Source of the DNA: Vicinamibacterales bacterium
GTDB taxonomy: Bacteria; Acidobacteriota; Vicinamibacteria; Vicinamibacterales; UBA8438
Direction of reading: 5' to 3'
DNA length: 64,000 bases
Assembly: GCA_965116765.1 (NCBI GenBank)
Contig: OZ220718.1
Span: 3,904,848 to 3,968,847, forward strand
Shown piece after piece: positions 5,518 through 33,044 of the stretch (the stretch's first letter is position 1; every line of letters starts with the position of its first letter). The notes under the pieces are model-generated. The model ran no database searches and was not told where the DNA came from. It saw nothing but the letters and a program-made list of their open reading frames with translations. The translations under genes were made by a program, and so were the position numbers.

Positions 5518-5852
5518 TCACGGGGAACGGTCGGGTCGGCCGACTCCGGTTTCCGGCTCGACGCCCTACCCCCGGCCCGGGGTCGGGGTGCCGCTCGTCC
5601 CGCCGGTAACCCGGCAGAATCCCGCCATCGCGGCCCGCGGCGGGGCGCGGGACGCCGCCGGCAGGCGGGATTGTGGGTTCCGGCGACTCGTGCTACCGTT
5701 TGCGCCGGGCGTCCGCCGGAGGCGCTCGAGGTCACCGGGCGCAGTGAAGCGACGAATCGCACGAAGGGCGCGGCCCTCGCGCTCGGCGGCCTTCGTGCTC
5801 GGGCCGGTACCGCAACCGCCGGCTCATCGGTCTATCGAGGAGGAACGACGAC

Positions 5853-6512
5853 ATGAAGTACCGACTGCCCGTTCTGTTCACTTTGGCTGCCGCAGTCGTG
5901 ATGGTCCCGATCGGTGCGGACGCGCACTTCCAACTGCTGGAGCCGGCGCCCTGGATCGTCCTGGACCGCCTCGGCAATCCCCAGAAGGTCGGCCCCTGCG
6001 GCGGAAACCCGAACGGCGACAACGCCGAGATTCTGTCCGGCATCGTCACCGAGGTCACCGGCGGGTCCAAGCTGCACCTGAAGATCCAGGAGACGGTCTT
6101 CCACTCGGGTCACTACCGCGTCGCGCTCTCGGTGAACTCGCGCAACGAGCTGCCGGCGGATACGACCGCGGTCGAGAAGTGGACGGACCGGGGCCTCTAT
6201 TCCGTCTGGGGCGTGATCCAGAGCCCGCCGCAGATCCCCGTTCTCGCCGACGGCCTGTTCCCGCATTATCCCGTGGGGGACCAGCGCGCCTCGTTCCGGC
6301 CCGAGACCCCGATGGACCCCTGGGAGGCCGACATCGACATCCCGAACATCAACTGCGAGAAGTGCACGCTGCAGGTCATCCAGTTCATGGCCGATCACGT
6401 GTACAACACGCCGGGCGGCTATTCCTACCATCACTGCGCCGACCTGAGGATCACCGCCGACCCGTCGAAGCCGATCGATGACCGCTGGCCGGCGTCGCAG
6501 ATGACCAACTGA
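5853..6512 (+). CDS. secreted LPMO-like (histidine-brace) protein, SCE4755-like family by recollection
   Basis: AGGAGG RBS before ATG 5853. Signal peptide MKYRLPVLFTLAAAVVMVPIGADA is followed directly by His (HFQLLEP), so His would be mature residue 1. Later His pairs (HSGHY, YHHC) and paired cysteines are present. Confidence 0.7.
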   Translation: MKYRLPVLFTLAAAVVMVPIGADAHFQLLEPAPWIVLDRLGNPQKVGPCGGNPNGDNAEILSGIVTEVTGGSKLHLKIQETVFHSGHYRVALSVNSRNELPADTTAVEKWTDRGLYSVWGVIQSPPQIPVLADGLFPHYPVGDQRASFRPETPMDPWEADIDIPNINCEKCTLQVIQFMADHVYNTPGGYSYHHCADLRITADPSKPIDDRWPASQMTN

Positions 6513-6806
6513 GTCGGCGACCGCCGACCCGAGGCCGGCCACGCCCGTGCGTGGCCGCCTCGACACATGACCCCGGGGCCGCCGGCAATTGCGGCCCCGG
6601 TCGCGTCGTCCTTCTGAACACGACCCGGGCAACAGCTCGCCGGCCCGCGGCCGGGCGAACGCGCCGTCCCCTCCCCCCGGACGAGCCCTGACCCGCGCCT
6701 ATCGCGATGTTGTTCAGCGAATCGGGCGCCGAACCGCGCGGCCTGGAAGCACGACCGAATGGGCGTCTCTTCTCTCCCCCGCCGCCGCAGGCGCCGAACC
6801 GGAGAG

Positions 6807-6880
6807 CGTCGCCCGGGGCTCCGCTCGCCGCCCGACCACCTGCCAGGAGTCGGCGCCGCTCTACGACGCGGACTGCTGGC
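6807..6880 (-). repeat. copy of the dispersed structured repeat (reverse orientation)
   Basis: CGTCGCCCGGGGCTCCGCTCGCCGCCCGACCACCTGCCAGGAGTCGGCGCCGCTCTACGACGCGGACTGC aligns to the reverse complement of the 57.45 kb unit. Confidence 0.55.
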
Positions 6881-6903
6881 CCGGTATCACGTGAGGAGCA
6901 CGC

Positions 6904-7300
6904 CATGAAGCTGGCGCTGAGCACGACGCTGCTGATGCTGAGCCTGGGCGCGACGGCCGCGGGCCAGACCGCCGGGGACCGCGGGGCGGAGGCCGAGCCG
7001 GTGGTGTTCCGCTGGGTGGGCACCACCGCGCACGCCTGGGGAGCCTGGGTCACGCCGGGGGCCGCGGTCGACGACTGGGTCGACGAGGCCGTGGCGCTCT
7101 GCGCCGGAGAGGACCTCTGCGAGATCAACGTGTTCGAGGGGCCGGAGCACGCGACGCACGAGATTCCGGTGCCCGAGGCGAACCGGGCGGGCCTGAAGTG
7201 GGTGCTGCGCTACCGGCACGCCGAGACGCCTCGCGTCGTGGTCGAAGAGGTTCGGGCGGAGCCGGGACGCGAGCCCCGCACATGGACCTTCGATCGGTGA
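6904..7300 (+). CDS. small secreted hypothetical protein
   Basis: GAGGAG lies 6 nt before ATG 6904. Signal peptide MKLALSTTLLMLSLGATAAG and non-biased composition afterwards. The upstream part of track ORF 6707..7300 is Pro/Arg-rich junk. Confidence 0.6.
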
Positions 7301-20327: not shown

Positions 20328-20627
20328 TCAACTCGCACGCAGGATGGGCTTCGGCAACTCCACGACGTCGCGCGACGCGCGGTGGATGTCGACAGCCCTT
20401 TGGGCGTTCAACCAGAACTCGGGTGTCGTTCGAAGGGCGGCGCCCAGCTTCAGGGCCATCCCCACGCCCACCGACGTCCTGCCGTTCACGATGCGGTTGA
20501 CCACCTTGACGTCGCAGCCGAGGTGGTCGGCAAATCGCTTCTGCGTCATGCCGAGCGGCAGGAGAAACTCTTCTCGGAGGATTTCCCCCGGGCTCGTCGG
20601 TCGACGTCGTCCGCGACGGATCGTCAT
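20328..20627 (-). CDS. higA: HigA-type HTH (XRE) antitoxin
   Basis: PGEILREEFLLPLGMTQKRFADHLGCDVKVVNRIVNGRTSV...TTPEFWLNAQ is the classic HigA pattern. Confidence 0.85.
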   Translation of the reverse strand: MTIRRGRRRPTSPGEILREEFLLPLGMTQKRFADHLGCDVKVVNRIVNGRTSVGVGMALKLGAALRTTPEFWLNAQRAVDIHRASRDVVELPKPILRAS

Positions 20628-20646
20628 GGGGTCCTCCGTTCCGGTC

Positions 20647-20937
20647 TCAGTGGTAGTCGACAATGTCGACGTCCGTCGGCCCGGACGCCTTCCAGCGGAA
20701 GACGACGCGCCACCGCTCGTTGATCCGGATGCTGTGCAGACCGGCCAGCCGGCCCTTCAGTCGTTCCAGTCGATTCCCGGGCGGCGACCTCAGGTCGCTC
20801 AGCGCACCTGCATAGTCGAGCATGTCGAGCTTCCGGGAAGCGAGCGGGGCTACGCGCGCCCAGCCGGCGCCGCGCGGTACGACGCCATCCGCGAAGAACC
20901 GTTCGACGGACCGACGGGTGAATCCCCGAATCGCCAC
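20647..20937 (-). CDS. higB: HigB-type (RelE/ParE superfamily) toxin
   Basis: The protein has the small HigB (killer protein) layout, e.g. LKGRLAGLHSIRINERWRVVFRW...DVDIVDYH. It lies directly upstream of higA. Confidence 0.8.
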   Translation of the reverse strand: MAIRGFTRRSVERFFADGVVPRGAGWARVAPLASRKLDMLDYAGALSDLRSPPGNRLERLKGRLAGLHSIRINERWRVVFRWKASGPTDVDIVDYH

Positions 20938-23043: not shown

Positions 23044-23521
23044 CGGGGGATGATCTCATTCGTGTCGAGGGTGACGCTGAAACACGGGCCGACGTTTACG
23101 GCGGGCCGTCCTCGCCGGAGCCGAGTGTCCCGCGAAGCGCCTGCGCGAAGTCAACCTGCGCCCATCCGCTCGACCGCAGGCGCTCGACCTCGCGTCCGGC
23201 CTGGCGGCGGAGCTTCGAGGCGGCGGCCCGCATGTGGGCGTCGCGAGCGCCGCTCGGGCGCTCGGTTCCACGTACGGAGGACACAGAATCGGTCCCTCCA
23301 CCGGCTGGACGGCGATCTGCCCTTCCCGGCATGGTTCACCGATTCTCCGACGCCAAGCGCACGGAAGTCAACGGATCGCCCGTGCACTCCGGCTCTCCTC
23401 TGTTCGCCGCCATCGCGCCGGACCGTCATGAGTTCCTCCGAAGCGGGTCCGCGCGAGCCGAGAATGTCGCCGCCCTCCGGCCTGACCGGCCACCGAGAGA
23501 CTACGGGAAACAGCCATCACC

Positions 23522-24088
23522 TCACCGACCCTGGAGATACGCCACGATTCGATCTCGCAGGTGTTTCGTCTCGGGACACAATCGGTACAACAGCGGCAGA
23601 TTCTTGAGCGTCATCTCGATCATCGCTCTTCTGCCCCCACCCACCTCGCCCCTGTCACCCCGACGTTCGACGAGCGGCTGGAAGATATCCTCCTTCATCC
23701 GCCGATGCTCGCGGACTTCATTCCAGGATTCCTTCAGATCGTTGCGGTACGCGACGCAGGCGAAGATCTCCACTTCCGGCTGTGCTGGACAACAGAACAG
23801 CTTGATCCGCCGTGCGGCGAGATTCTCCTCCAACTGTCGCGCCGCGTCCGGCGTCGCGCGATCGGCGTCGGGAAAGAAGAGCCACAGGTCGAAGAAGTCG
23901 TAGCGGCCGGGAAGCTCCTTCCGGATGACTGTCAGAGCACGGTCGTAGCCCTGAACCCGCGGATTGGTCAGCAATTCCACGTGAGCCGCGGGCTTTCCCG
24001 CATCGGCCACAAGGGCCTTCGTCAACGGCTTGAGGATGTACCCGTTCCAGGTCGGATCTTCCGCGATGACGAGAACCCTGAAGCTCAC
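23522..24088 (-). CDS. small TOPRIM/DUF4276-like protein, partner of the upstream ATPase
   Basis: The GTG start overlaps the ATPase stop (GTGA at 24085-24088). A beta-strand plus acidic residue (FRVLVIAED), a later FFPDAD acidic pair and PEVEIFACVAY give a spacing reminiscent of TOPRIM-like DUF4276/DUF4435 proteins. The region has lower GC. Confidence 0.7.
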   Translation of the reverse strand: MSFRVLVIAEDPTWNGYILKPLTKALVADAGKPAAHVELLTNPRVQGYDRALTVIRKELPGRYDFFDLWLFFPDADRATPDAARQLEENLAARRIKLFCCPAQPEVEIFACVAYRNDLKESWNEVREHRRMKEDIFQPLVERRGDRGEVGGGRRAMIEMTLKNLPLLYRLCPETKHLRDRIVAYLQGR

Positions 24089-25392
24089 AGTGCCGCTTCC
24101 AGCCAGCCTTCCGAGAACAGGTCCGCGATGTGTTGTCCCGGTCTCCTGAGAATGTCCATCAGGCGAGGCACTTCGGTCAACGGCAGGATATGCGACTCAC
24201 CCGTCTGCTCGTTGCGCCGGCAGAAGAACGTCGTTTCGTATTCCTCCTCCTGAAGCCATGCCAGCACGAGCGGCGAATGCGTGGTGGCGAAGACTTGGGT
24301 GCCGGTTCGTTCCGCCTGGCTCCGGAACAGCTCCAGGATCAGCCGCAGGCGGTTGGGATGCACTGCGTTCTCAATGTCCTCGATCGTCATGACCTGCGGC
24401 ATGTCGGGTTGAAAGAAGGCGGCGGCCAACGCCGCGAACCGCAACGTACCGTCGCTCAGAACGGGGGCCGGAACCTCCCGATCGCCCTCGTGCAGCTTGA
24501 ACAGCGGCTCCTTGACCGCCCCGTGAAGCACGCCGACGTTGCTCACTTCCTCGGGGCGCAGCTCTTGGAGCCAAGACAGGTACGCTTTCCGTGTCTCGTC
24601 CTCCCCGCACAGCAGTTCGACCAGCGCGGCAAAGTTCTCCCCGTGCTCGCCCATGCGCCGCGCGCGAGCATCCGCCGCGTAGTTCCGCAGACGCGCCGGT
24701 ATCGGGTCGAGACACTGCACGCTCGCCAGCAAGGCCGCCATCCTGCTCGCACGGTCGGTCTGCCACTTGACATCGTCCACCCTGGTCAGGGTGCTAAGGG
24801 ATACCGTGTCCCACAAGCCACCGCCGGCAACCTGCCCGAGTACGGGTCGCGCACGCTCGAAGGTCGCGACAACCGGATCCCCCGATTCCTTCGGATAGCA
24901 CCGCACCTCGAGACCGGGGCCGCCCCGGGGCGAATACACGTTCAAGGCGTGGTCGCAGCCCGAGTCGTAGACGACCGTTCCGACACTGAGCCGTTCGCCC
25001 GCCACCCGTCCGGCATCGGGCGAAAACGCGATCGAGAACTCCCAGGCTCCGGCGACCACGCCTTGCAGACCCCCGCGCGCCTCGACTGTCACTTGACCAA
25101 CCGACGTTGCGGATGCCGGGTCGCCGGTCCCGCCGGCCCCCGCGAAGCAGGCATTGCCGGTCCCGCCGCGAATGCCGTCCCATACTTCGCTGGTCGCGCT
25201 CCGGGCCTTTCCGTCGAGGATCTCGCCGATGGTGAAACCGTTGCCGATACCCTGCAGTACCCGGAGCGCATCGAGGAAGTTCGACTTCCCGCTGGCGTTC
25301 GCGCCGATGAACAGGTTCAGCCGGCCCAGGGACAGATCGACCTTGCGCAGGCTCTTGAAGTTCTCGATGACGATGCGGTCGATCACGCCCAC
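24085..25392 (-). CDS. ABC/SMC-like AAA_21-type ATPase
   Basis: IENFKSLRKVDL...LNLFIGANASGKSNFLDAL (Walker A), LSDGTLRFAALAAAF (signature), VMTIEDIENAVHP (Walker B/D-loop) and FATTHSP (H-loop). A GGAGG RBS precedes the GTG start. Confidence 0.85.
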   Translation of the reverse strand: MGVIDRIVIENFKSLRKVDLSLGRLNLFIGANASGKSNFLDALRVLQGIGNGFTIGEILDGKARSATSEVWDGIRGGTGNACFAGAGGTGDPASATSVGQVTVEARGGLQGVVAGAWEFSIAFSPDAGRVAGERLSVGTVVYDSGCDHALNVYSPRGGPGLEVRCYPKESGDPVVATFERARPVLGQVAGGGLWDTVSLSTLTRVDDVKWQTDRASRMAALLASVQCLDPIPARLRNYAADARARRMGEHGENFAALVELLCGEDETRKAYLSWLQELRPEEVSNVGVLHGAVKEPLFKLHEGDREVPAPVLSDGTLRFAALAAAFFQPDMPQVMTIEDIENAVHPNRLRLILELFRSQAERTGTQVFATTHSPLVLAWLQEEEYETTFFCRRNEQTGESHILPLTEVPRLMDILRRPGQHIADLFSEGWLEAAL

Positions 25393-25405
25393 CGCCCTCC
25401 TTCGG

Positions 25406-25621
25406 TCAGGACCCGGAGGCCTCGTTGCCGTGAGGATCGGACGAATCCACGAGTTGCGCCAACGGGAACTCCTCGCGGTACAGCCAGCTCAACAGATCGA
25501 GATAGGGACGTGCGAACTCGTCGGGGTCGGCACCGCTTCGCGACGCCAAGGCCCGGGCCGCGGCGGCTTGGTCGCGGATGATCCGCGCCCGAGCTTCCAC
25601 GGAATCCACCCAGACGCCCAC
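25406..25621 (-). CDS. 71-aa hypothetical protein immediately upstream of the ATPase
   Basis: GTG start with coding-like third positions. The stop lies 13 nt before the ATPase start, with the ATPase RBS in between. No recognisable family. Confidence 0.4.
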   Translation of the reverse strand: MGVWVDSVEARARIIRDQAAAARALASRSGADPDEFARPYLDLLSWLYREEFPLAQLVDSSDPHGNEASGS

Positions 25622-25796
25622 TACGGAAGCCTCAGGATGCCCTGGCGGTGCGCCGAGTCGAGGCCCCTGTACCGAGCGATCTCGACGCCAAGCGCGCTCC
25701 TCGCACCGGAAACTCGCCCGCGCAACAACAATCGGACGATAACACGGTCATCGGGGTCGAATGGCCCGCCGTCAGCCGGCGGAGACGCGGCGGAAG

Positions 25797-26240
25797 TCAC
25801 GGCCGGTGATCTTCCCGGAACTTCGCGGCATAGCGCCGCGCCGCGTCCATCTTGTCGAGCTGGGGCAGGAAGTCGAAGTAGCGCGAGAGGGTCTGGCCGG
25901 CGCGGGTGGTCGTGGCCCGCAGGTCGCGCGAGAGCAGGCGAACGCCGTCGCGCAGCACGCGGTGATACAGCAGGATCGACGCCCGGTTGAGGACGACGAC
26001 GTCGACGTCGTTGGTGCCGAGCGCGACCATGAGATCGGTCGTCAGATCCGCCTCGTAGCCCCACTTGCTGGTGCGGACGCGAGCTTGGTCGACGTACACG
26101 GCGACGTCGACATCGCTGTCAGGGCGCGCCTGCCCGCGGGCGCGGGAGCCGAAGAGGTAGGCTTCGAGGATCTCCTCGCGCGGCGACAGCGCGCGGGTCA
26201 ACCGCGCGACGAGCTGTCGGTCCACGTTCTCTCGTGCCAC
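25797..26240 (-). CDS. MntA-like minimal nucleotidyltransferase (MNT)
   Basis: GGAG lies 5 nt before GTG 26240. LFGSRARGQARPDSDVDVAVYV is the GS...DxD NTase motif. The C-terminal VVVLNRASILLYHRVLRDGVRLL...YFDFLP is typical of MntA antitoxins. Confidence 0.8.
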   Translation of the reverse strand: MARENVDRQLVARLTRALSPREEILEAYLFGSRARGQARPDSDVDVAVYVDQARVRTSKWGYEADLTTDLMVALGTNDVDVVVLNRASILLYHRVLRDGVRLLSRDLRATTTRAGQTLSRYFDFLPQLDKMDAARRYAAKFREDHRP

Positions 26241-27222: not shown

Positions 27223-28248
27223 CTACTGCCCCGATTCCGCCAGCTCCTCCGCGCGGGCGCCCGACAGCAGGTTCTGCATGCCGTAGTTGCCCTCGTGGCA
27301 CGCGTACTCGAACATCGCCGACCCGCGTTTCATCGGCAGCGCCACGGTGAACGGCCGCGTGAAGGTGGCCGGGTCGTCGACGGTGTACTCGTACAGCAGC
27401 GTGTCCTCGTCGATGCGGCTGAACCGCTCTACGAGGTGCAGCGTCTCGCCCGAGCCGATGGCCACCCGGGTGGACGGCGCGAAGCTGGCGGTGTTGGCGG
27501 TGAAGTTGGTGGTCTCGACGACGAGCGTGTCGCCCTCCCAGCGCCCGCGCGAGCTGCCCAGCCACTGCCGCAGGTCGCCGGGGAGCGGCGCGCGGCCGTC
27601 GAGGGGCACGATGCGCGAGTCGTGGACCATCTCGTTGAGAATGACCACGTGGTCGGCGGTCTGGAAGATCTGGATGTTCTGGTTGTAGCCGCCGGGCACG
27701 ATGGGCGGACCGGTGTTGAACCCGAGCAGGCACCGCTCGGCGACCCCGCGGTCCTCGGGACCGTCGGCGCCGATGCCGCCGACGCGGATGCGCACCGGCC
27801 ACGCGGGGTCGGCGCCGTCGCCCTGCCGCTCCACGCCCGGCCGCGTCTCGGGCAGCCGGCCGTCGGGGGGATCGACGATGAGCGAGGTCCGGCGGTCGTC
27901 GACGACCCCGGCCCCCCGGTCGAACCAGAAGTTGTTGTAGCCGCCGACGTTGCCGCCCACCGGCAGGGGCTCGGTGCGGATCTCGCTGGGCCGGTCCGCG
28001 TCGATGGCGCGCTGCACGGCCGCGGCCTCGATCTCGGCCGCCTCCTCCGCCGTCAGCTCGGCCTGATCCGCCCGGTCGTCGGGGCGCTGCAGCGGGGTCA
28101 GGGTCCGGAAGTCCCACACCCCCTGGAGGTCGGGGGCGCCGTCGGGCAGGCGGGGCACGTCGGACGCCGGCTGGGCGCCGGCGGGGACGGACAGGACCGC
28201 GGCCAGCGCGGTCAGCGCCAGCACGGCGCCGAAAGATCGTCTCTGCAT
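27223..28248 (-). CDS. secreted protein of an uncharacterised family (YEYACHEGNY motif), tandem copy 1
   Basis: AGGAG lies 8 nt before ATG (MQRRSFGAVLALTALAAVLSVPAGAQ). Conserved blocks are PDLQGVWDF, RRTSLIVDPPDGRLP, WEGDTLVVETTNF and YEYACHEGNYGMQN. Confidence 0.8.
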   Translation of the reverse strand: MQRRSFGAVLALTALAAVLSVPAGAQPASDVPRLPDGAPDLQGVWDFRTLTPLQRPDDRADQAELTAEEAAEIEAAAVQRAIDADRPSEIRTEPLPVGGNVGGYNNFWFDRGAGVVDDRRTSLIVDPPDGRLPETRPGVERQGDGADPAWPVRIRVGGIGADGPEDRGVAERCLLGFNTGPPIVPGGYNQNIQIFQTADHVVILNEMVHDSRIVPLDGRAPLPGDLRQWLGSSRGRWEGDTLVVETTNFTANTASFAPSTRVAIGSGETLHLVERFSRIDEDTLLYEYTVDDPATFTRPFTVALPMKRGSAMFEYACHEGNYGMQNLLSGARAEELAESGQ

Positions 28249-28297
28249 CTCGTACACTCCTGACTGCCTCTCACTACCGGCGGACCAGTGGCCCTCG

Positions 28298-29320
28298 CTA
28301 CTGCTGCCCCGATTCGGCCAGCTCTTCCGCCCGGGCGCCCGACAGCAGGTTCATCATGCCGTAGTTGCCCTCGTGGCACGCGTACTCGAACATTTCGGAA
28401 CCGCGCTTCATCGGCAGCGCCACCGTGAACGGCCGCGTGAAGGTCGCCGGGTCGTCGACGGTGTACTCGTAGAGCAGCGTGTCGGCGTCGAGGCGGCTGA
28501 ACCGCTCTACGAGGTGCAGCGTCTCGCCCGAGCCGATGGACTGCACGACGGACGGGTTGAAGCTGGCGGTGTTGGCGGTGAAGTTGGTGGTCTCGACGAC
28601 GAGGGTGTCGCCCTCCCAGCGCCCGCGCGAGCTGCCCAGCCACTGGCGCAGGTCGTCGGGGAGCGGCGGCCGATCGTCGAGGGGCACGATGCGCGAGTCG
28701 TGCACCATCTCGTTGAGGATGACCACGTGGTCGCCGGTCTGGAAGATCTGGATGTTCTGGTTGTAGCCGCCCGGCGTGATGGGCGGCCCGGTGTTGAAGC
28801 CGAGCAGGCACCGCTCGGCGATGCCGCGGTCCTCGGGGCCGTCGCTGCCGATGCCGCCGACGCGGAACCGGACCGGCCGCGTCGCCCCGGGGCCGGGGCC
28901 TTGCCGGTCGGCGCCGGGCTGCGCCTCGGGCACGCGGCCGTCGGGAGGGTCGACGATGAGCGAGGTCCGGCGGTCGTCGACGACCCCCGCCCCGCGGTCG
29001 AACCAGAAGTTGTTGTAGGCGCCCACGTCGCCGCCCGCCGGCAGCGGCTCGGTGCGGACCTCGCTCGGCCGGTCGGCCTCGACCGCGCGCTGCACCGCCG
29101 CGGCCTCGACCTCGGCCGCTTCCTCGGCCGTGAGCTCCGCCGCCGCGTCCTCGGGGCGCTGCAGCGGGGTCAGGGTCCGGAAGTCCCAGACGCCCTGGAG
29201 GTCCGGGGTGCCGTCGGGGAGGCGGGGCACGCCCGGCGCCGGCTGGGCGCCGGCGGGGACGGACAGGACCATGGCCAGCGCGGCCAGCACCAGCACGGCG
29301 CCGAAAGATCGTCTCTGCAT
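28298..29320 (-). CDS. secreted protein of the same family, tandem copy 2
   Basis: The RBS/start context is the same as copy 1. Long runs of residues are identical to copy 1. Confidence 0.8.
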   Translation of the reverse strand: MQRRSFGAVLVLAALAMVLSVPAGAQPAPGVPRLPDGTPDLQGVWDFRTLTPLQRPEDAAAELTAEEAAEVEAAAVQRAVEADRPSEVRTEPLPAGGDVGAYNNFWFDRGAGVVDDRRTSLIVDPPDGRVPEAQPGADRQGPGPGATRPVRFRVGGIGSDGPEDRGIAERCLLGFNTGPPITPGGYNQNIQIFQTGDHVVILNEMVHDSRIVPLDDRPPLPDDLRQWLGSSRGRWEGDTLVVETTNFTANTASFNPSVVQSIGSGETLHLVERFSRLDADTLLYEYTVDDPATFTRPFTVALPMKRGSEMFEYACHEGNYGMMNLLSGARAEELAESGQQ

Positions 29321-29440
29321 CTCGTTCACTCCTGACTGTCTTCTCACGAACCTGGAAACCGTCGCCCGGGCCGGGCCGCCGCCGCGAGGCCCTGCCCCAC
29401 CGCGTCTCGCGCGTCGCGGGCGTTCAGCCGAATCGAGCCC

Positions 29441-31347: not shown

Positions 31348-32511
31348 CTAAACCTCTGACTGTGCGGTGTCTCGCTGGTCGGCTCTGAAACCGCCGGGGG
31401 GTTCGCCCTCTCCTCGTACAGGGTTGTTGACCTCGTCTTCGGCGAGGTCCCCTCCACTCGGCGGGGGCGGCGGTCCTCCGTCTCCTCCGCTTCCGCCTCC
31501 GGGGGTCGGTGGCGACATCGTGTCCGGGCCTCGTGCCGCGGGCTCGTTGGGTCTCGTCCATCCGGCGGGGGGCCTCACGGGGTCGGGCGTCCAGTCGGCG
31601 ATTGTTCTTGACTCGTTCGTGCTCATCGCCTCGAGTATGGCTTCCAGTCGGGGTTGATCGCCGATGTCGCCCGGCTCGACCGTGCGCCACAGCTGGCTCT
31701 GCGCGGTCTCGGACCACCACCTTGTGACCTCGGCGGGGTCGGACATCCGCGCCCGTTTCGTGGTTTCTCCCCGGGACGTCTCGATGACTGTCACGCCTCT
31801 CTCAATGCGGATTGAGACGTTGTCGTGGACGTTGTCCATCACCGCGGCTATCGCGTGGCGTGCCGGCTCCCTGGCCGCGGCGGCCCACCGGCCGTTGGGC
31901 TTGATGATCTCTTCGGGGTCTTCGGGGTGCTCGTTGCGGCGGGTCCACCAGCTTTCCATCGCGGCCTCGGCGTGCCACCGGGGATACCCGTTGACGGCGA
32001 CCTGAAGCGCTGCCGGGTCGAGCTCGGCCGCTACGGCGAAGTCGTACAGATCGCGGCCGGGCGCGGTCCCGCTTCGGCCCCAGTACTTCCCTGCGAGTAT
32101 CTGGGCGTTGCTGAGCAGCGTCAGCCGGTCCCCTTGGACCGTGCCGGCCGCGTGGCCGGCCGGCAGTGACAGCACGTTCGTCGATACGTCGATCTTCCCG
32201 TTCTCGAAGATGAACGCCATCACCGCCGGCGCGGCGCCCGGCGTGAGCCCGTCGTCTGCGGTTCGGTGCTTTCTGCACCCGGCCTGCGCCATTGCGTCTG
32301 TCACGCGCCGCCACCATGCTCTGGTCGGCGTTGTCGACACCGTGAGGTCGAGGTCCTCGCTGGCCCGGTGCCTCCATCGCAGCGCCAGTACGGTTCCGCC
32401 GCCGATCTTCACGCCCCATCCGTCGTCTGCGGCCTCTTGGATCGGTCCCAGAACGACTTGTCTCGTCGTTCTGTACAGCGTAGCCGCCGGTTCCGGCCAG
32501 GTGCGCGTCAC
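31348..32511 (-). CDS. AbiEii/AbiGii-like nucleotidyltransferase toxin with an extra C-terminal domain and a Pro/Gly-rich tail
   Basis: The GTG start overlaps the upstream stop (GTGA). KIGGGTVLALRWRHRASEDLDLTV matches the AbiEii GGTAL...R.S.DLD motif. About 150 further residues follow, ending PPTPGGGSGGDGGPPPPPSGG. Confidence 0.7.
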   Translation of the reverse strand: MTRTWPEPAATLYRTTRQVVLGPIQEAADDGWGVKIGGGTVLALRWRHRASEDLDLTVSTTPTRAWWRRVTDAMAQAGCRKHRTADDGLTPGAAPAVMAFIFENGKIDVSTNVLSLPAGHAAGTVQGDRLTLLSNAQILAGKYWGRSGTAPGRDLYDFAVAAELDPAALQVAVNGYPRWHAEAAMESWWTRRNEHPEDPEEIIKPNGRWAAAAREPARHAIAAVMDNVHDNVSIRIERGVTVIETSRGETTKRARMSDPAEVTRWWSETAQSQLWRTVEPGDIGDQPRLEAILEAMSTNESRTIADWTPDPVRPPAGWTRPNEPAARGPDTMSPPTPGGGSGGDGGPPPPPSGGDLAEDEVNNPVRGEGEPPGGFRADQRDTAQSEV

Positions 32512-33044
32512 GGTCGAGTCTCGGGGGTCTCCGCGTAGCAGCGGTGGGCCCACGTGTTGATGGTCTGGATGCGGGGCCCGTGTTCGAGCCCCTGCGTGTG
32601 CAGGGCTCTTGCGAGGCGGCGCATGGTGAATGCCCCGTCTCTCACGGCGTCGTCGATCTCGTCTGCCGTGGTCTCGAGGAGCCACGCGAGGAGGATCCGG
32701 CGGTGGGCGGGCTCCCGCCGGTCGGCATCGAGCGCGGCCTGGAAGTCGGCTTCCGTGATATGCCGCGGTCTCCCGGCGCTGAGACGCGCCAGTCGGACTC
32801 CCAGGGCGGTGCTCGACGCCGGGGGCTCGCGCTTGCCCCGCCGGCTGTCGAAGAGCTCGGCCGGCGCCAGGACGTTGGGCTCGAGCAGCGGCCCCCAGTC
32901 CCGGTGGTGGCGTGGTCGCAGCTTCAGCCATGCCGTCGCGTCGAGTCCGGCCCGGTCGCGCGGCAGGGGTACGGGTTTGCCCGTCTCCTCGTCGAGCCGG
33001 TAGACGGCCGCCTGCGGGCTCCACGGATTCCACTTCGTCATCAT
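32508..33044 (-). CDS. hypothetical protein, putative cognate partner of the AbiEii-like gene
   Basis: MMTKWNPWSPQAAVYRLDEETGKPV... has coding-like composition. The ATG overlaps the stop of the upstream dehydrogenase gene (ATGA). It does not look like canonical AbiEi. Confidence 0.55.
   Translation of the reverse strand: MMTKWNPWSPQAAVYRLDEETGKPVPLPRDRAGLDATAWLKLRPRHHRDWGPLLEPNVLAPAELFDSRRGKREPPASSTALGVRLARLSAGRPRHITEADFQAALDADRREPAHRRILLAWLLETTADEIDDAVRDGAFTMRRLARALHTQGLEHGPRIQTINTWAHRCYAETPETRP

Follow-up and report, generated by a model that had tools for sequence, protein, structure and literature searches.

A divergent TOPRIM-like protein coupled to an ABC ATPase in a Vicinamibacterales bacterium: a candidate two-gene anti-phage module

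Introduction

Pairs of an ATP-binding cassette (ABC) ATPase and a TOPRIM protein are among the commonest designs in bacterial immunity, and their mechanism is understood only for PARIS, OLD and Gabija. PARIS, AbiL and MADS3-4 each join an AAA15/21 ABC ATPase to a TOPRIM protein, and the PADLOC candidates HEC-01, PDC-M31 and PDC-M38 have likewise been catalogued as an ABC ATPase with a small TOPRIM protein. Here a gene pair of this general kind is described from a 64-kb stretch of the genome of a Vicinamibacterales bacterium (contig OZ220718.1, positions 3,904,848 to 3,968,847 of the forward strand), which is called the window below and to which all coordinates refer unless a locus is named. 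The pair lies on the minus strand and encodes an ABC-type ATPase of 433 amino acids (aa; 24085-25386) and, downstream of it, a TOPRIM-like protein of 188 aa (23522-24088). By analogy with the split OLD-type defences (PARIS, AbiL, MADS3-4 and HEC-01), in which an ABC ATPase is joined by a small TOPRIM-like protein, this pair would act against phage, a reading to which we assign a probability of about 60%.

In PARIS the ATPase forms a scaffold that frees the nuclease when a phage protein is sensed, and the nuclease, AriB, cuts tRNA. MADS is a system of eight genes. PDC-M07 (FAM_00005>>FAM_01367), an untested PADLOC candidate, was found through its embedding in systems of the restriction-modification (R-M) type, and in HEC-01 an ABC ATPase together with a TOPRIM protein is embedded in Hma systems, which contain a methylase (Payne et al. 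2024, bioRxiv 10.1101/2024.01.29.577857). The preliminary description of the present locus had called it undescribed. This is overstated for the design, which is known from PARIS, AbiL, MADS3-4 and the PADLOC candidates HEC-01, PDC-M31 and PDC-M38, but it holds for the effector family, and the novelty lies in this family, which is covered by no library of hidden Markov models (Pfam, PADLOC, NCBIfam or PHROGs), so that current tools would not call the pair. The finding extends a known class and overturns nothing.

The conserved unit is a two-gene pair

The preliminary description had proposed a defence operon of four genes, and four co-directional open reading frames (ORFs) are indeed present on the minus strand: upstream of the pair lie a 71-aa ORF (25406-25621, from the ORF list) and a gene for an MntA-like nucleotidyltransferase (MNT) of 147 aa, read from a GTG at 26240 (25797-26240), the longest ORF extending to 26315. 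To place these genes, relatives of the small protein (46-66% identical to that of the window) were traced to 80 genomic loci, which were fetched and searched with the four window proteins. Whether the ATPase and the small protein are neighbours elsewhere had been left as a question, and the answer is clear: in 79 of the 80 loci an ATPase homologue (42-63% identity) is encoded directly 5' of the small gene, and in at least 51 of these 79 the first base of the small gene is also the last base of the ATPase's final sense codon, just as in the window. There the ATPase stop and the GTG start of the small gene share the four bases GTGA (24085-24088, minus strand, in the context ctGTGAgc on direct reading), an overlap that had been noted before and by which the two genes are coupled in translation. 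The 71-aa ORF, by comparison, occurs in none of the 80 loci and the MNT gene in one, on the opposite strand and 1 kb away.

A single four-gene system would account for the common orientation and tight spacing of the genes, the 71-aa ORF stopping 19 nt 5' of the ATPase start, and for the retention of the whole arrangement in the near relatives L081, L082, L092 and L093. It is nevertheless scarcely probable. Beyond the counts just given, the 71-aa ORF is limited to the window's own lineage. The lower-GC patch that had been said to contain all four genes is real, with a GC content of 0.61-0.67 across 23250-25750 against 0.69-0.73 on either side, but the MNT gene lies outside it and has the GC content of the flanks. 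In locus L094 (847-1273), moreover, the MNT gene and the 71-aa ORF are kept although the small TOPRIM gene is gone and the ATPase is cut to a 63-aa remnant of which the first 19 aa alone match. From the counts across the 80 loci, together with the loss of the pair alone in L094, it follows that the conserved unit is the two-gene pair and that the MNT gene and the 71-aa ORF are lineage-specific neighbours of it rather than parts of the module.

The host range of the pair takes in Acidobacteriota, Verrucomicrobiota, Gammaproteobacteria, Spirochaetia, Binatia, Planctomycetota, Cyanobacteria and Burkholderiales. Because this distribution across phyla is patchy and identity is low, it suggests that the pair has spread by horizontal transfer. 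Both proteins keep every catalytic residue, and since each has hundreds of full-length homologues, both ORFs can be taken as real genes rather than the chance reading frames of high-GC DNA. No second copy of the pair was found in a search of the 64-kb window; one may exist elsewhere in the source genome, in the form of a small-protein relative of 61% identity (P0102).

The ABC ATPase

The start codon of the ATPase is taken as the GTG at 25386, which gene callers use on near-identical contigs; an alternative GTG at 25392 gives the listed ORF of 435 aa (24085-25392). Ahead of the start stands a Shine-Dalgarno-like element, AAGGAGGG (25395-25402, minus strand, on direct reading), whose GGAGG lies 5 nt past the stop of the 71-aa ORF and 9 nt ahead of the ATPase start, and which is unchanged throughout an alignment of the lineage. 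The description of the protein as a full ABC-type ATPase is borne out by several lines of evidence. Its translation contains GANASGKSN, LSDGTLR, TIEDIENAVHP and ATTHSP, and the Walker A, signature, Walker B and H-loop motifs of the ABC set are all present. Pfam assigns it to AAA_21 (1.2e-32) and AAA_15 (4.9e-18), with a match to SMC_N as well. In PADLOC its best match, over the full length, is PDC-M07A (6.6e-56), followed by HEC-01A (2.1e-36), AriA, AbiLi (2.5e-24), mad3, GajA and Old. [quoted passage not shown] The Pfam and PADLOC matches and the likeness of the model therefore make this an ABC ATPase of the SMC/Rad50/OLD class. We propose that it is the sensor or scaffold component of the pair.

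The TOPRIM-like partner

The 188-aa protein has the motifs VLVIAED, FFPDAD and PEVEIF that had been read from its translation, and Pfam, PADLOC, NCBIfam and PHROGs all leave it without a match, even with the cut-off relaxed to E=10. It is nonetheless a member of a large family. A word-indexed search returned 316 proteins, of which the best 120 are nearly all about 185-200 aa long, are 58-91% identical and are without exception unnamed or called 'hypothetical', and a profile search of 1.84 billion representatives gathered 546 clusters, defined at 50% identity, at E<=1e-3 (298 at E<=1e-10). The family extends across many mostly uncultured phyla and, being invisible to all four libraries, is missed by current defence censuses; a profile made from the present alignments would let annotation tools find it.

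Conservation of individual residues was assessed in 84 family members reaching down to 27% identity, each of which was also scanned against Pfam and PADLOC models. Glu10 and Asp74 are invariant, and Asp11, Asp76, Glu105, Glu107, Arg126, Lys132, Gly152, Arg153, Cys171 and Glu173 are conserved in at least 90% of members. In the AlphaFold (AF2) model (pLDDT 92.4, predicted template modelling score 0.89) the order along the chain is b1(4-9)-a1-b2(36-39)-a2-b3(68-72)-a3-b4(97-99)-a4, with a helical C-terminal domain at residues 122-187, and the acidic motifs fall at the strand ends: the Glu/Asp pair after strand 1, DxD after strand 3 and ExE after strand 4. DUF4276 and RloB are described as Toprim-superfamily nucleases, and the TOPRIM layout given for them, as for RNase M5 and OLD, is a Glu followed by DxD (PMC12065111); the model, where the Glu comes after strand 1 and the DxD after strand 3, fits this arrangement in the placing of its motifs and in the order of its strands and helices.

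Remote matches point in the same direction. DUF4276 is matched by 34 of the 84 members (best 5.7e-6, below threshold) and HEC-01B by 28, these being the more distant members (best 4.2e-7), while Pfam RloB and mad4 are each matched by 3, AbiLii by 4, PDC-M31B by few, DUF3226 by 1 and Toprim_4, insignificantly (E 0.13), by 1. Among viral structures in BFVD the model comes closest to an RloB-like protein, matched with an E-value of 4.4e-3, a probability of 1.00 and a TM score of 0.50. Taken together, these observations give good but not conclusive support for placing the protein in the Toprim superfamily as a divergent sister of DUF4276, and a role as a metal-dependent nuclease effector is proposed for it.

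Comparison with named systems

The pair maps cleanly to no named system in PADLOC, the A components of several systems matching the ATPase and their B components leaving the small protein unmatched. The closest parallel on the ATPase side is PDC-M07: PDC-M07A is the best match for all ATPases of the family, with E-values of 1e-57 to 1e-62 for the relatives, whereas PDC-M07B is matched neither by the window protein nor by any of 87 relatives. The ATPase superfamily FAM_00005 is thus common to both and the partner family differs; the identity of PDC-M07B was sought in the supplements of the paper, which give family codes only. With HEC-01 the pair shares the organization of an ABC ATPase gene and a separate small TOPRIM-like gene, the embedding in methylase systems and the matches to both components noted above, but the window protein itself matches no HEC-01B model, and the window ATPase is closer to PDC-M07A than to HEC-01A. 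Since ATPases whose best match is PDC-M07A are here accompanied by partners with no PADLOC match, the pair is a mixed one, its ATPase resembling PDC-M07A and its effector DUF4276/HEC-01B, and would go uncalled by current tools.

Mad3 and Mad4 are likewise an AAA15/21 ABC ATPase and a DUF4276-type TOPRIM protein within a methylation-associated defence, to which some relatives of the window pair offer a parallel (see below). The window ATPase, however, scores 116.7 bits against the NCBIfam MAD3 model, for which the cut-off is 420, the mad4 model is unmatched by the window protein, and the window copy is without a methylase. PARIS, as a split ABC ATPase and TOPRIM nuclease, is the mechanistic template. 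Its nuclease AriB belongs to DUF4435 and has a mass of 35 kDa and a length of about 300 aa, whereas the window partner has 188 aa and 21 kDa and shows no match to DUF4435, which is also missing from the 25 families that were listed for its 84 relatives. The earlier view that the partner is not AriB holds; nor is an AriA structure among the best 50 Foldseek matches listed for the ATPase. AbiL too combines an ABC ATPase with a small TOPRIM protein, of RloB type, and resembles the pair through AbiLi and through the viral RloB-like structure, although neither AbiLii nor RloB models are matched by the window protein itself. OLD and GajA of Gabija have the two domains and the catalytic logic in common with the pair but carry them on one fused polypeptide rather than in separate genes, and the UvrD-like helicase gene of Gabija and class 2 OLD systems does not adjoin the pair in the window.

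One further arrangement was seen on plasmid pAQU1 (L097, 3202-11073), in the order hsdM-hsdS-[ATP-binding protein and 161-aa hypothetical protein]-hsdR. The pAQU1 ATPase is homologous to the family ATPase and its 161-aa partner is unrelated to the small protein (hhalign probability 2.8%); we infer that this system, nested in type I R-M genes, is PDC-M07.

Association with restriction-modification genes and plasmids

About 25% of the loci have the pair inside a type III-like R-M cassette. In L086 and L091 it stands between genes for an N6_N4 methyltransferase of 1050 aa and a ResIII protein of 1020 aa, with overlapping starts, and the same order of modification (Mod) methyltransferase, ATPase, small protein and restriction (Res) protein recurs in L006, L011 and L017, where PADLOC recognizes the 5' proteins as MTase_III (1e-158 to 1e-173) and gives weak matches of the 3' proteins to REase_III. 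The cassette methyltransferases are 68-69% identical among themselves and the Res proteins 72-73%; the consensus of the latter contains the helicase motif DEGHH and, at the C-terminal end, EPDFIV...EIKG, which we read as resembling a PD-(D/E)xK nuclease. Counted by searches with back-translated motifs, and hence as lower bounds, a methyltransferase gene lies just 5' of the ATPase in at least 19 of the 80 loci, a Res gene just 3' in at least 15, and both in at least 14. Nowhere in the 64 kb of the window do these motifs of the cassette occur, and the window copy is stand-alone.

Such nesting raises the question whether the pair serves as an accessory module to a methylation-based system, type III-like R-M or MADS-like, that needs Mod and Res and provides a nuclease arm or a back-up when restriction is inhibited, in which case the window copy would be a detached remnant or would rely on R-M genes elsewhere in the genome. 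The four-gene cassettes with their overlapping starts and mutually similar enzymes are what this predicts, the closest ATPase relatives of the window among the 80 loci (L007 and L079, 58.7% identity) have a methyltransferase upstream, and Mad3/Mad4 in MADS and PrrC in type I R-M are precedents. Still, obligate dependence seems unlikely: about 60 of the 80 loci, two plasmid copies and the window have no cassette, the window having no such methyltransferase or Res motif anywhere in its 64 kb, and yet both genes are intact with their catalytic residues complete.

One Spirochaetia contig (OZ251575) bears two copies of the pair about 9 kb apart (L018 and L029), with two type III-like methyltransferase genes between them.

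Two plasmids carry the pair as well: one of Rathayibacter, with relaxase and transfer genes on either side of it, and one of Brasilonema, where it is near an integrase, the small protein of the latter being recognized by hhalign with a probability of 100% (E 1.7e-57). Proximity to transfer genes and an integrase, toxin-antitoxin (TA) genes in the vicinity of the pair and a tight coupling typical of TA pairs would all suit a selfish addiction module, in which a small nuclease toxin is restrained by the ATPase and the genes are kept by post-segregational killing. The current data cannot separate addiction from abortive-infection defence, but the R-M nesting favours defence, and we regard pure addiction as very improbable.

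Three loci show the pair in states of disrepair. In L082, a near-identical strain, the ATPase (5670-6972) is called as two pieces of 338 and 101 aa, through either a frameshift or an assembly error. In L068 (3354-6001) the small gene is interrupted by a 2.6-kb insertion, which encodes a probable transposase, whose N-terminus resembles a zinc ribbon, and a fusion of a methyltransferase with HNH. With the split ATPase of L082, the deletion in L094 and this insertion sequence in L068, the pair decays like accessory genes.

A candidate defence function

The assignment of the pair to defence is inferred from R-M nesting, plasmid cargo, patchy distribution, the low-GC patch, nearby TA-type genes and decay, and it is the better grounded for the type III-like R-M cassettes that enclose the pair in about a quarter of the loci. 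One plausible sequence of events can be drawn by analogy with PARIS and OLD. An oligomer of the ATPase would hold and control the small protein until a signal of invasion by phage or other foreign DNA altered the nucleotide state of the ATPase; the TOPRIM active site (Glu10/Asp11, Asp74-x-Asp76 and Glu105/Glu107) would then be free to cut nucleic acid with Mg2+, and whether the target were DNA or tRNA, either the infection or the cell would be stopped. The complex of the two proteins, the nuclease activity, the trigger and the target are all conjectured here from the described systems. The R-M nesting suggests in addition that some members, like PrrC and PARIS, may work alongside a restriction system or in line behind it. 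The recurrent association with Mod and Res offers a concrete example, open to testing, in which restriction is coupled to an ATPase-nuclease module.

A more specific proposal makes the 188-aa family the effector of an unnamed but functional defence existing in two forms, a stand-alone pair and a Mod-ATPase-TOPRIM-Res cassette that guards or completes restriction, with a trigger and target unlike those of PARIS, OLD or Gabija. The cassette form could fire when restriction is blocked. This proposal is tentative, and we would sooner expect it to fail than to hold.

Several observations weigh against an anti-phage role or against the TOPRIM assignment on which it draws. The earlier suggestion of a TOPRIM or DUF4276-like domain stands as far as the motif layout and the remote links to DUF4276, HEC-01B and RloB are concerned, but the relatives that match DUF4276 (PF14103) score about 15 bits against a gathering cut-off of 30.2, and Foldseek of the 188-aa model against the PDB gives no TOPRIM structure and nothing significant, only generic flavodoxin-like three-layer alpha/beta matches with E-values no better than 6e-3. 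Searches of the PDB with profiles from the family alignments found nothing, and hhalign of the small-protein family against P2 Old was negative (probability 0.1%), a comparison of low power, made with a single sequence. HEC-01, among relatives the nearest to have been put to the test, gave E. coli no protection from any of the phages tried (bioRxiv 10.1101/2024.01.29.577857) and is for that reason without proven function. The pair was not found in 50,697 phage genome records. Most stand-alone copies, that of the window included, sit among ordinary metabolic and envelope genes rather than in clear defence islands, although some are near a ParE/ribbon-helix-helix pair or a DruA gene. Finally, the archaeal OLD-family ATPase Cran1 has a role outside defence (PMC12796447).

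The last two points are also the natural grounds for a housekeeping function, be it DNA repair in the manner of RecF/RecR or SbcCD or a cell-cycle role like that of Cran1, since many copies lie among ordinary genes, an ABC ATPase with a small Toprim protein is the logic of RecF/RecR as well, and the ATPase has a weak match to the N-terminus of RecF. That match, however, amounts to 37.2 bits against a cut-off of 172 (TIGR00611), the small protein has no RecR-type match, and the family is patchy, plasmid-borne, nested in R-M genes, present twice in some genomes and often broken, all of which makes a housekeeping role improbable and leaves a split OLD-type defence as our preferred reading of the pair.

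The lineage-specific neighbours

The 71-aa protein, like the small protein of the pair, is matched at E=10 by no model of Pfam, PADLOC, NCBIfam or PHROGs. It forms four clusters in total (83-100% identity), and the three besides that of the window (83-90%) all occur in the context MNT-71-aa ORF-ATPase. Across the lineage alignment the ORF is free of indels and keeps its start codon, with an exchange of GTG for ATG, whereas the non-coding stretch 5' of it carries indels; by hand count it has about 13 synonymous and about 14 non-synonymous changes. It is probably a real, lineage-specific small coding gene that stands outside the conserved module. Within it, 45 nt at 25460-25504 (minus strand), encoding ADPDEFARPYLDLLS, are identical in all lineage copies, third codon positions included, while the remainder of the ORF varies; this identity could reflect constraint at the nucleotide level.

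The MNT protein scores 87.1 bits against the NCBIfam model MntA_antitoxin (6.5e-25; cut-off 60) and also matches Pfam Polbeta (2.3e-19). As in the type VII TA system MntA-HepT, an adjacent gene for a HEPN toxin (HepT) was sought: there is no HEPN match, and none of the three downstream frames encodes one. A frameshifted HepT 3' of the MNT gene was rejected for want of any HEPN signal. The stop of the MNT gene overlaps the GTG of a 59-aa frame, whose own TAG overlaps the start of the 71-aa ORF, and this frame was considered for such a HepT; it was ruled out as well by having no homologue in the 80 loci, and by the indels and the deletion of about 100 nt that the stretch shows in relatives (the deletion in L094).

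Genes around the locus

The locus is bounded, as the preliminary description had it, by a DUF5916 gene, in which Pfam also recognizes CBM9, and by a gene of the family formerly called DUF1080 and now 3keto-disac_hyd. Flanking repeats, promoters or terminators that would mark the boundary of an island or operon were searched for, and none was convincing. Within 8 kb of the pair there are, besides the MntA-like gene, a HigB/HigA pair and an AbiEii-like gene. The former, a type II TA pair just past the DUF5916 gene, consists of a HigB-like toxin (20647-20937, minus strand; Pfam 7.5e-19) and its partner, a helix-turn-helix antitoxin (20328-20663, minus strand). The latter has an AbiEii-like nucleotidyltransferase toxin domain (31348 to about 32534, within an ORF at 31348-33033, minus strand; Pfam 3.4e-9) and is called as a gene of 394 aa on near-identical contigs, preceded there by a 178-aa gene that could encode its antitoxin. 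Between the AbiEii-like gene and the pair, on the minus strand, lie two tandem paralogues of 344 and 349 aa with very similar sequences (27223-28257 and 28298-29347); the first of them matches no Pfam family, and the N-termini of both resemble signal peptides.

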